From Escherichia coli (lineage in GTDB: Bacteria; Pseudomonadota; Gammaproteobacteria; Enterobacterales; Enterobacteriaceae), in NCBI RefSeq assembly GCF_024502345.1, contig NZ_JALDNN010000001.1: 64,000 bases of DNA. One strand, written 5' to 3'. The notes beneath the pieces were generated by a model. It had not been told where the DNA came from and ran no database searches. It saw only the letters and a list, made by a program, of their open reading frames with translations. This document shows, one piece after another, positions 25,774-30,183 of the stretch. The position numbers and the translations under genes were made by a program. Every line of letters begins with the position of its first letter. Within the stretch, counting starts at the first letter, position 1.

Positions 25774-25990
25774 GGGCCTCTGTAATAATCAATTTCCCCT
25801 CCGGCAAAACGCCAATCCCCACGCAGATTGTTAATAAACTGTCAAAATAGCTATTCCAATATCATAAAAATCGGGTATGTTTTAGCAGAGTATGCTGCTA
25901 AAGCACGGGTAGTCATGCATAAAACGAAATAAAGTGCTGAACAACAACATCACAACACACGTAATAACCAGAAGAATGGGGATTCTCAGG

Positions 25991-27094
25991 ATGAACATAA
26001 AGGGTAAAGCGTTACTGGCAGGATGTATCGCGCTGGCATTCAGCAATATGGCTCTGGCAGAAGATATTAAAGTCGCGGTCGTGGGCGCAATGTCCGGTCC
26101 GGTTGCGCAGTACGGTGACCAGGAGTTTACCGGCGCAGAGCAGGCGGTTGCGGATATCAACGCTAAAGGCGGCATTAAAGGCAACAAACTGCAAATAGTA
26201 AAATATGACGATGCCTGTGACCCGAAACAGGCGGTTGCGGTGGCGAACAAAGTCGTTAACGACGGCATTAAATATGTGATTGGTCACCTCTGTTCTTCAT
26301 CAACGCAGCCTGCGTCTGACATCTACGAAGACGAAGGCATTTTAATGATCACCCCAGCGGCAACCGCGCCGGAGCTGACCGCCCGTGGCTATCAGCTGAT
26401 CCTGCGCACCACCGGCCTGGACTCCGACCAGGGGCCGACGGCGGCGAAATATATTCTTGAGAAAGTGAAACCGCAGCGTATTGCTATCGTTCACGACAAA
26501 CAGCAATACGGCGAAGGTCTGGCGCGAGCGGTGCAGGACGGCCTGAAGAAAGGCAATGCTAACGTGGTGTTCTTTGATGGTATCACCGCCGGGGAAAAAG
26601 ATTTCTCAACGCTGGTGGCGCGTCTGAAAAAAGAGAATATCGACTTCGTTTACTACGGCGGTTATCACCCGGAAATGGGGCAAATCCTGCGTCAGGCACG
26701 CGCGGCAGGGTTGAAAACTCAGTTTATGGGGCCGGAAGGCGTGGCTAACGTCTCGCTGTCTAACATTGCGGGCGAATCAGCGGAAGGGCTGCTGGTGACC
26801 AAGCCGAAGAACTACGATCAGGTTCCGGCGAACAAACCCATTGTTGACGCCATCAAAGCGAAAAAACAGGATCCAAGTGGCGCGTTCGTCTGGACCACCT
26901 ACGCCGCGCTGCAATCTTTGCAGGCGGGCCTGAATCAGTCTGACGATCCGGCTGAGATCGCCAAATACCTGAAAGCGAACTCGGTTGATACCGTGATGGG
27001 TCCGCTGACGTGGGATGAGAAAGGTGATCTGAAAGGCTTTGAGTTCGGTGTGTTTGACTGGCACGCCAACGGCACGGCGACCGATGCGAAGTAA
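25991..27094 (+). CDS. livJ: Leu/Ile/Val-binding periplasmic protein LivJ
   Basis: Track ORF starts at 25934; ATG at 25991 ([12 protein letters not shown]...) gives 367 aa; signal peptide plus type-I PBP. Confidence 0.93.
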
Positions 27095-27151
27095 TCATTA
27101 ATCGGCAACTTTGGGTTGCCGCCAAATTGCTAATATCGAGTACGTTGCTTC

Positions 27152-27254
<103 letters not shown>

Positions 27255-27292
27255 TTTCTCGTTGGTCATCACTTTTGAAATCAACTTGACGA

Positions 27293-27676
27293 TTAACGCT
27301 TCTCCCAGCCGCCCTGTTGCGCCGTAAACCCCAGCGCCTGCATAAACGCCGTCATCACACCGCGATCTTCCAAGCCTGCATCCGCCATCCACCAGCATGA
27401 AACGGCAGGATTGTTACGCAAAACCTCTTCCAGCAGATATTGCCCCACACCGCGACGGCGGGTGACTTCCCGCACGCGCAGGGAATCCAGTGCTCCCTCG
27501 GTGCCGCTTAAGGTTACCCGCACGGCCGCTAGCAGGCGCTCGTTAAAACGCGCGGCGTAGATGCGGTGGTTATCGTCAACCTGTAAAGAGGAAGGGGAAT
27601 ACTCCGGCCAGATCTTTTGCAGGTCAATCCGGTCCTGGTCGCTAAAGTTTTCTAATCGAATGATGGTCAGCTTCAT
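27293..27676 (-). CDS. panZ: PanD maturation factor PanZ (PanM)
   Basis: 127 aa GNAT-fold protein; matches K-12 PanZ/YhhK; between livJ and livK. Confidence 0.9.
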   Translation of the reverse strand: MKLTIIRLENFSDQDRIDLQKIWPEYSPSSLQVDDNHRIYAARFNERLLAAVRVTLSGTEGALDSLRVREVTRRRGVGQYLLEEVLRNNPAVSCWWMADAGLEDRGVMTAFMQALGFTAQQGGWEKR

Positions 27677-27865
27677 GGGTAACCCGTGTAAATCACAAAA
27701 GTGGAACCAGTGTAGCGAAATAATTTAATCGGAGGCTTTCTCTTTTTTATTTCTTTTGGCAGGTGATTAATTTTTTAACAGCAATAATTACAAAGTTAAA
27801 ACATTATAGAATGAAAAATACCCAGCATAATCCCCTGAATGATAGTGAATTATTCCGCCCTTTGT

Positions 27866-27898
27866 GCCGTTATTTTATGCTGACAACGGCGCTTTTTT
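27866..27898 (+). terminator. Attenuator-like hairpin with T-tract in the livK leader region
   Basis: GCCGTT-N13-AACGGC stem followed by GCTTTTTTCT, inside the AT-rich divergent panZ/livK regulatory region. Confidence 0.35.
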
Positions 27899-28099
27899 CT
27901 GTTTATCTATCAATAAATTCAGAATATTATCTGTTCTTAATCGACTGAAAAATAGGGATTTTAATCGCTATTATCACAAAATACTGCGCTAAACCCTTAA
28001 TCAGACAGGCAAAAACAGTGCAGTATAAAAAAAGAACAGTCTGATTTGTTAACACATAAAAACAAAGCAACACAACATCACGAATGGGGATTTTTGACT

Positions 28100-29209
28100 A
28101 TGAAACGGAATGCGAAAACTATCATCGCAGGGATGATTGCACTGGCAATTTCACACACCGCTTTAGCCGACGATATTAAAGTCGCCGTTGTCGGCGCGAT
28201 GTCCGGCCCGATTGCCCAGTGGGGCGATATGGAATTTAACGGCGCGCGTCAGGCGATTAAAGACATTAATGCCAAAGGGGGAATTAAGGGCGACAAGCTG
28301 GTGGGCGTGGAATATGACGACGCCTGCGACCCGAAACAAGCCGTTGCGGTCGCCAACAAAATCGTTAACGACGGCATTAAATACGTTATTGGTCATCTGT
28401 GTTCTTCTTCTACCCAGCCTGCGTCAGATATCTATGAAGATGAAGGTATTCTGATGATCTCGCCGGGAGCGACCAACCCGGAGCTGACCCAACGCGGTTA
28501 TCAACATATCATGCGTACTGCCGGGCTGGACTCTTCCCAGGGGCCAACGGCGGCAAAATACATTCTTGAGACGGTGAAGCCCCAGCGCATCGCCATCATT
28601 CACGACAAACAACAGTATGGCGAAGGGCTGGCACGTTCGGTGCAGGACGGGCTGAAAGCGGCTAACGCCAACGTCGTCTTCTTCGACGGCATTACCGCTG
28701 GCGAGAAAGATTTCTCCGCGCTGATCGCCCGCCTGAAAAAAGAAAACATCGACTTCGTTTACTACGGCGGTTACTACCCGGAAATGGGGCAGATGCTGCG
28801 CCAGGCCCGTTCCGTTGGCCTGAAAACCCAGTTTATGGGGCCGGAAGGTGTGGGTAATGCGTCGTTGTCGAATATTGCTGGCGATGCTGCCGAAGGCATG
28901 TTGGTCACCATGCCAAAACGCTATGACCAGGATCCGGCAAACCAGGGCATCGTTGATGCGCTGAAAGCAGACAAGAAAGATCCATCCGGGCCTTATGTCT
29001 GGATCACCTACGCGGCGGTGCAATCTCTGGCAACTGCCCTTGAGCGTACCGGCAGCGATGAGCCGCTGGCGCTGGTGAAAGATTTAAAAGCAAACGGTGC
29101 AAACACCGTGATTGGGCCGCTGAACTGGGATGAAAAAGGCGATCTTAAGGGATTTGATTTTGGTGTCTTCCAGTGGCACGCCGACGGTTCATCCACGGCA
29201 GCCAAGTGA
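28100..29209 (+). CDS. livK: Leucine-specific binding protein LivK
   Basis: Track ORF starts at 28046; ATG at 28100 ([11 protein letters not shown]...) gives 369 aa; paralog of livJ. Confidence 0.93.
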
Positions 29210-29256
29210 AAATCCCACCGCCCGTGAAATGCGGGCGGGTTTAGAAAGGTTACCTT

Positions 29257-30183
29257 ATGTCTGAGCAGTTTTTATATTTCTTGCAGCAGATGTTTAACGG
29301 CGTCACGCTGGGCAGTACCTACGCGCTGATAGCCATCGGCTACACCATGGTTTACGGCATTATCGGCATGATCAACTTCGCCCACGGCGAGGTTTATATG
29401 ATTGGCAGCTACGTCTCCTTTATGATCATCGCCGCACTGATGATGATGGGCATTGATACCGGCTGGCTGCTGGTGGCGGCGGGATTCGTCGGCGCAATCG
29501 TCATTGCCAGCGCCTACGGCTGGAGTATCGAACGGGTGGCTTACCGCCCGGTGCGTAACTCTAAGCGCCTGATTGCGCTCATCTCGGCAATCGGTATGTC
29601 CATCTTCCTGCAAAACTACGTCAGCCTGACCGAAGGTTCGCGCGACGTGGCGCTGCCGAGCCTGTTTAACGGTCAGTGGGTGGTGGGCCATAGCGAAAAC
29701 TTCTCTGCCTCTATTACCACCATGCAGGCGGTGATCTGGATTGTCACCTTCCTCGCCATGCTGGCGCTGACGATTTTCATTCGCTATTCCCGTATGGGGC
29801 GCGCGTGTCGTGCCTGCGCGGAAGATCTGAAAATGGCGAGCCTGCTTGGCATTAACACCGACCGGGTGATTGCGCTGACCTTTGTGATTGGCGCGGCGAT
29901 GGCGGCGGTGGCAGGTGTGCTGCTCGGTCAGTTCTACGGCGTAATTAACCCCTACATCGGCTTTATGGCCGGGATGAAAGCCTTTACCGCTGCGGTGCTC
30001 GGTGGGATTGGCAGCATTCCGGGAGCGATGATTGGCGGGCTGATTCTGGGGATTGCGGAGGCGCTCTCTTCTGCCTATCTGAGTACGGAATATAAAGATG
30101 TGGTCTCATTCGCCCTGCTGATTCTGGTGCTGCTGGTGATGCCGACCGGTATTCTGGGTCGCCCGGAGGTAGAGAAAGTATGA
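29257..30183 (+). CDS. livH: Branched-chain amino acid ABC permease LivH
   Basis: 308 aa hydrophobic permease; operon position. Confidence 0.94.

Follow-up and report, generated by a model that had tools for sequence, protein, structure and literature searches.

A hairpin upstream of livK in Escherichia coli as a probable by-product of an Lrp-type site in promoter DNA

The panZ-livK spacer and its hairpin

We analyzed the DNA between panZ and livK in a 64,000-nucleotide stretch of Escherichia coli (hereafter the window; positions are counted from its first letter unless K-12 coordinates are given). The stretch is a segment of the E. coli chromosome with the gene order rpoH-livJ-panZ-livKHMGF. 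The original prediction described a long AT-rich divergent control region between panZ and livK, and this description is accurate: the two genes are divergent, and 100-nt windows of the spacer have 28-38% GC versus 50-67% in the flanking genes. Within the spacer, a stem-loop is followed directly by a T-rich tract. The features at the center of this analysis are as follows.

27293-27676, minus strand: panZ, divergent from livK
27677-28099: panZ-livK divergent intergenic control region, 423 bp, 33% GC
27864-27892, plus strand: stem-loop with an 8-bp stem, arms GUGCCGUU (27864-27871) and AACGGCGC (27885-27892), and a 13-nt loop
27893-27904, plus strand: T-rich tract UUUUUUCUGUUU (= TTTTTTCTGTTT), directly 3' of the stem and including TTTTTT
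28100 (ATG) to 29209 (stop), plus strand: livK, followed by livH (ATG at 29257) and then livM

The region is nearly universal in the species: among 5,426 complete E. coli genomes, 5,424 match a 601-bp query over the hairpin region at 95-99% identity, and the genes annotated under the match are panM/panZ and livK. Window positions (w) convert to K-12 MG1655 coordinates as K12 = 3597560 + (28100 - w), the intergenic region having no net indel; the K-12 RefSeq annotation has no feature between panZ and livK. For comparison with relatives, we used 75 distinct panZ-livK spacers obtained from the panZ loci of 80 Enterobacterales species. The spacer measures about 388-471 bp, for the most part 395-445, across over 70 Enterobacterales species, although sequence turnover near panZ is high; Escherichia, Pantoea, Erwinia, and more distant genera all stay at roughly 390-445 bp. 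The steady length argues for a constrained protein-DNA architecture.

The GC stem followed by a T-tract in the livK orientation, originally placed at 27866-27898, is present and falls within 27864-27904. The stem-loop folds at -11.6 kcal/mol, with z-scores of -2.6 (56-nt context) and -3.0 (41-nt context) against dinucleotide shuffles. In this strain it has the stem and U-tract of an intrinsic terminator, although its 13-nt loop is long for one. A generic terminator scan of 27000-28600 returned 2 terminator-like sites versus 2.1 +/- 1.5 in shuffles, so a single such site is at chance level. A known RNA family at the hairpin was rejected: an Rfam scan of 27000-28600 gave no meaningful family for it, and the overlapping matches are chance-level hits (E above 1) to weak eukaryotic or unrelated models. 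Elsewhere, in the livJ-panZ convergent spacer, Rfam matches of the naRNA4/REP type at 27129-27184 and 27227-27294 are sub-threshold (best 40.4 bits, E 2.6e-5, gathering score 59.5); the K-12 livJ 3' end, at about window position 27268, lies beyond these matches.

Conservation of the hairpin in E. coli and relatives

The perfect stem is a minority allele of E. coli. The exact 81-bp sequence at 27850-27930 occurs in 180 of the 5,239 matching complete E. coli genomes (about 3%), and the K-12 allele, with the right arm AAAGGCAC, is found exactly in 2,821 of 5,228. For the K-12 allele the folding energy is -8.3 to -8.6 kcal/mol, with z between -1.5 and -1.8, a stability matched by 16-20 of 200 shuffles. 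Since the majority allele retains a 5-bp GC-rich basal stem right before the U-tract, some terminator potential persists in E. coli. Outside the species, the homologous segment of E. albertii, E. whittamii, and another divergent Escherichia lineage folds at only -1.3 to -1.9 kcal/mol. Among the 75 orthologous regions the mean folding z is -0.10; only 2 have z below -2, only 6 retain 7 or all 8 of the homologous pairs, and in many species the hairpin is absent (0 to -2 kcal/mol) beside a perfectly conserved T-tract.

Covariation gives the same picture. When 30 Enterobacteriaceae sequences are aligned without gaps, the paired cells amount to 70.4%, versus 70.0 +/- 1.0% with shuffled 3' partners, and the covariation score is 0.170 versus 0.177 in shuffles. 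Of the two central stem pairs, one is broken in 21 of these sequences and the other in 15. RNAalifold on the aligned relatives returned 0 consensus pairs. Neither conservation nor compensatory change maintains the stem in relatives. Within Enterobacteriaceae, the left arm with the loop (CCGTTATTTTATGCTG) and the T-tract (GCTTTTTTTTGTTTATCT) are near-invariant, and the right arm drifts without compensating changes. The T-tract is kept there as DNA sequence and is absent in Pantoea/Erwinia. As read from the alignment, a fixed left arm, loop, and T-tract together with a drifting right arm are characteristic of elements that act at the DNA level and not of an RNA helix.

Promoters, transcript ends, and Lrp-type dyads

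We next consider where transcripts of this region start and end.

27702-27714, minus strand: panZ promoter, with a -10 element TACACT at 27709-27714 and a transcription start site (TSS) at 27702, -26 from the panZ ATG
27984-28001, plus strand: conserved block CTGCGCTAAACCCTTAAT, the inferred livK start region (about 27990-27996)

Pyrosequencing-based (454) TSS mapping places the yhhK (panZ) start at -26, with the -10 box GCTACACT, and a livJ start, marked as known, at -101 (Mendoza-Vargas 2009, PMC2760140). The CAGTGTA of the panZ -10 is conserved in our alignment. The only mapped TSS that we retrieved within the spacer is that of panZ, on the strand opposite to livK (PMC2760140). The read for this start is also labelled 'livK -398' in the table of PMC2760140; it is strand-ambiguous there and could mislead a search for a far-upstream livK promoter. 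The searchable published TSS tables, which are partly incomplete and carry no livK TSS of any kind, list no livK-strand TSS upstream of the hairpin.

The mapped promoter of the paralog livJ offers a guide to the livK start. Part of the sequence upstream of livJ is homologous to that upstream of livK, and the livJ +1 (25890) aligns to about 27990-27996 of livK. By this analogy we infer a livK TSS at about 27990-27996, about 95 nt 3' of the T-tract. A start at this position implies a 5' UTR of about 100-105 nt (101 nt for livJ); relative to it, the hairpin would span about -130 to -95, in upstream-activator territory. The original prediction had named a livK start downstream of the hairpin as the result that would speak against it, and by analogy with livJ this is probably where livK transcription begins. 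The livJ promoter itself (TTCCAA-16-TATGTT, TSS 25890, window 25854-25897) is almost invariant in 40 species.

A sigma-70 PWM scan gave its best matches at TATTAT (27969-27974), which occurs in E. coli only, and at the conserved TATTAT (27925-27930) and TATGCT (27876-27881). The scan is not decisive, because its best matches coincide with transcription factor-like dyads, a control scan put the known livJ promoter no higher than second, and the mapped panZ -10 was not among the top matches. The well-ranked candidates all lie 3' of the U-tract, with two exceptions: TATGCT at 27876-27881, whose transcript would begin within the hairpin, and CATAAT at 27826-27831, a weak match. A candidate sigma-54 promoter at about 28008-28021 (GGCA-N-GTGCA, GG-N10-GC) was rejected as a chance match, its spacing and GC element being lost in Enterobacter/Klebsiella.

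Published transcript 3' ends were available from Term-seq of K-12 in LB at OD 0.4, LB at OD 2.0, and M63 glucose (Adams et al. 2021, PMC7815308). Term-seq had been put forward as a check of the hairpin, and in the uncut table for these three conditions K-12, which carries the weaker allele, has no 3' end at 35977xx, the hairpin lying at K-12 3597796-3597757. The M63 data do contain 3' ends in the liv locus at 3596418 (after livK), 3597520 (inside livK), and 3598392 (beyond livJ). Therefore, livK transcripts are present and their ends detectable in M63, yet none falls at the hairpin.

The 15-bp consensus string of Lrp, known from SELEX work, is YAGHAWATTWTDCTR. The following elements of the spacer resemble it or are conserved near it.

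27823-27837: Lrp-consensus-like dyad A, CAGCATAATCCCCTG (CAG-N9-CTG), a consensus match
27843-27857, plus strand: Lrp-consensus-like site TAGTGAATTATTCCG, with two mismatches
27868-27882, plus strand: Lrp-consensus-like site B, CGTTATTTTATGCTG, with 3 mismatches to YAGHAWATTWTDCTR, making up the hairpin left arm and loop
27920-27933: near-palindrome CAGAATATTATCTG, almost invariant in Enterobacteriaceae
27936-27957, plus strand: block CTTAATCGACTGAAAAATAGGG, conserved to Pantoea/Erwinia

The 423-bp spacer contains 7 matches to the Lrp consensus at up to 3 mismatches versus 1.9 +/- 1.3 in dinucleotide shuffles, and only 2 of 1000 shuffles reach 7. Several of these sites are kept in orthologs. 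In 71 of 75 species site B has no more than three mismatches, and its Pantoea form, CAGTGTATTATGCTG, is a near-perfect dyad with one mismatch to the consensus. Dyad A has at most 3 mismatches in 52 of 75 species and at most 4 in 72 of 75, its dyad ends persisting to Pantoea and Erwinia; the site at 27843-27857 is within 3 mismatches in 41 of 75. The near-palindrome CAGAATATTATCTG, a putative transcription factor site, resembles an Lrp site one base short, and Pantoea keeps its CAG...CTG ends with a changed center. The block CTTAATCGACTGAAAAATAGGG is a probable promoter-proximal regulatory element. The motif TTAAT-N3-CTG-N-AAAATAG is common to this part of the livK upstream region (27936-27957) and to the livJ upstream region at 25830-25851 (GTTAATAAACTGTCAAAATAGC, just 5' of the livJ -35). 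Near the livJ +1, TAGCAGAGTATGCTG has two mismatches to the Lrp consensus and has TATGCTG in common with the livK site at 27868-27882. An IHF-like sequence, TATCAATAAATTC at 27908-27920, was set aside as confined to Escherichia.

These observations agree with published work on Lrp. The Lrp motif is a 15-bp dyad with an AT-rich center, and Lrp prefers AT-rich DNA (Kroner et al., bioRxiv 10.1101/276808). The RegulonDB Lrp matrix scored the 16-mer CCGTTATTTTATGCTG at 10.86 (supplement of Mendoza-Vargas et al. 2009, PMC2760140). The suggestion of nucleoid-protein control, with Lrp as the regulator of liv genes, is supported by a PlivK-lacZ fusion, in which Lrp activates this classic Lrp/leucine-regulated gene when leucine is absent and the gene is repressed when leucine is present (PMC2374795), by the excess of consensus sites, and by published ChIP-seq. 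The ChIP-seq data, a check named in advance, have locus-level resolution and show persistent high Lrp occupancy at livKHMGF-livJ in minimal and LIV media (PMC10127797). In leucine medium, livK-livJ is the one locus that keeps Lrp bound (Ziegler & Freddolino, PMC10127797). The spacer therefore combines the marks of an Lrp-regulated promoter region, namely locus occupancy and leucine-dependent expression, a cluster of sites above expectation, and sites kept in orthologs. Lrp would bind at these particular predicted sites; the consensus itself is degenerate and AT-rich.

The livK region also resembles other Lrp promoter regions (ilvIH, gltBDF, dadAX, and livJ) in having AT-rich upstream DNA with several degenerate 15-bp dyads of the YAGHAWATTWTDCTR type and, for the livK locus, published in vivo Lrp occupancy and leucine-modulated expression. 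Unlike the Lrp sites of ilvIH, which have a phasing of about 30 bp, the best-conserved livK dyads are spaced by about 45 and 52 bp.

Taking these data together, we consider it quite probable that the hairpin is a chance by-product of a conserved Lrp site beside a T-rich tract and that the spacer is an ordinary Lrp-controlled promoter region. The 423-bp spacer would then be a DNA-level control region and not an RNA leader. At its left end would lie the minus-strand panZ promoter with its start at 27702, followed by an array of conserved Lrp-type dyads (about 27823-27933) and, at the right end, by a livK promoter that is weak and depends on an activator, with a GcvB target in the 5' UTR of about 100 nt. 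Oligomeric Lrp would bind the dyad array and wrap or bridge the DNA, activating livK when leucine is absent and repressing it when leucine is present. The hairpin would be accidental: the best-conserved Lrp site, CGTTATTTTATGCTG, supplies the left arm and loop, and the GC-rich segment after it, which is variable, is by chance complementary to the left arm in this allele and abuts the T-tract. The T-tract may have a role in such a region, and the Lrp model alone does not account for how strongly this tract is conserved in Enterobacteriaceae. Both the AT-rich divergent spacer and its connection with Lrp are genuine and were known before, and the regulation of livK and livJ by Lrp, leucine, and GcvB is textbook knowledge. 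The hairpin adds no new regulatory layer under this explanation and has little import beyond annotation tidying. A more general lesson is that a stem and T-tract in AT-rich promoter DNA do not make an attenuator without evidence of transcription and conservation.

Among the alternatives, the one that survives best, while still unlikely, is that the conserved TTATGCTG (27875-27882) reflects a promoter, with TATGCT (27876-27881) as its -10 and TTCCGC (27853-27858) as its -35, from which a livK transcript with a long leader, or else a short RNA, would start at about 27888, inside the hairpin. When sigma-70 scores are averaged over the phylogeny, this -35/-10 pair ranks second in the region (mean 4.5, median 5.6), but such an averaged score favors any conserved AT-rich block. 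The layout, TATTCCGC-N17-TATGCT, echoes the mapped livJ promoter, TATTCCAA-N16-TATGTT (TATTCC...TATGTT). However, Pantoea/Erwinia lack the -35-like part and keep the CAG...CTG ends, which fits a transcription factor site, and the retrievable data sets have no TSS there (PMC2760140).

Two further readings, taken together, are a slimmer prospect. In the first, the fixed-length array of three Lrp-type dyads and the livJ-shared block, kept from Escherichia to Pantoea/Erwinia, would be a defined nucleoprotein architecture. If so, it might explain why Lrp stays bound in leucine solely at livK-livJ. We know of no site-by-site dissection of such an array at livK. In the second, which we consider the less likely of the two, the hairpin and T-tract of the perfect-stem E. 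coli strains (about 3%) may be a recently acquired intrinsic terminator of an unmapped upstream or pervasive plus-strand transcript, with strain-specific insulation or attenuation of livK as the consequence.

Slightly less probable again is an insulator terminator, in which the hairpin and T-tract would halt pervasive or divergent transcription that begins in the AT-rich DNA close to the panZ promoter and so keep it from the livK promoter. The stem would be free to drift, with a strength that varies by lineage. A T-tract following a variable GC-rich segment is indeed conserved in Enterobacteriaceae, and Buttiauxella L027 (-9.8 kcal/mol) and Enterobacter species (-7 to -8 kcal/mol) have moderately stable hairpins of their own ending at or near it. 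Against this idea are the mean z near zero, the many species with an intact T-tract and no hairpin next to it, the missing 3' end in K-12 Term-seq, and a count of terminator-like sites that does not exceed shuffles.

Finally, the leader-level attenuator first proposed at 27866-27898 fares worst. It would need a livK promoter 5' of 27864, with the hairpin and U-tract tuning read-through into livK, possibly in response to leucine, and we regard it as very improbable: a stem and U-tract on the livK strand (-11.6 kcal/mol, z about -3), weaker forms of it in most E. coli, and the modest promoter-like CATAAT upstream (27826-27831) are outweighed by an unconserved stem without covariation, the lack of a K-12 Term-seq end even in M63, where livK transcripts are detected, the lack of an upstream same-strand TSS in the retrievable data (PMC2760140), and the lack of a conserved leader ORF or alternative structure. 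Two ORFs cross the hairpin, one of 61 aa from GTG 27763 (about 45 aa from an internal ATG) and one of 42 aa from GTG 27864. We rejected both as a leader peptide or small protein, as they are unconserved (the ATG of the 45-aa form becomes TCG in Enterobacter and is lost in other genera too) and have no run of Leu codons. A search for an alternative antiterminator structure at the hairpin found none. The livK hairpin resembles the leu, ilvGMEDA, and thr attenuators in that, on the sense strand, a GC-containing stem leads directly into a U-tract ahead of an amino-acid-related operon. Unlike them, it has no leader peptide with regulatory codons, alternative structure, conserved stem, or mapped 3' end, and it most likely lies upstream of the TSS.

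Leader-level control of livK downstream of the hairpin

Signals of the kind originally sought are found nearer to livK and within it.

28070-28081, plus strand: C/A-rich element ACACAACATCAC in the livK 5' UTR
28086-28089, plus strand: Shine-Dalgarno sequence GGGG, 3' of the C/A-rich element
28121-28140, plus strand: 6-bp hairpin AUCAUC-GCAGG-GAUGAU in livK codons 8-13, -9.7 kcal/mol, z -1.6

From the sequence of GcvB R1, we take ACACAACATCAC at 28070-28081 to be the likely GcvB pairing site. A strong K-12 M63 3' end at 3597520 corresponds to window position 28140, 40 nt into livK and 3 nt after the 6-bp hairpin, with no U-tract. This end may be a true premature termination site or a processing site of the livK leader transcript. 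Williamson and Oxender reportedly described prematurely terminated livK transcripts in 1992, which fits the end at 28140. The gene is a target of GcvB R1, verified in Salmonella and conserved in E. coli (PMC9299463). GcvB targeting and early livK 3' ends thus constitute the leader-level control of livK that the original prediction looked for, about 170-270 nt 3' of the hairpin and without the element at 27864-27904.

A separate hairpin lies between livK and livH. Its arms CCGCCCGU/GCGGGCGG, at 29218-29242 between the livK stop (29209) and the livH ATG (29257), fold at -16.8 kcal/mol and are followed by UUU. The Term-seq 3' end at 3596418 corresponds to window position 29242, exactly on the U-tract of this hairpin. 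The livK-livH hairpin is an intra-operon terminator, and it would uncouple expression of the binding protein from that of the permease.
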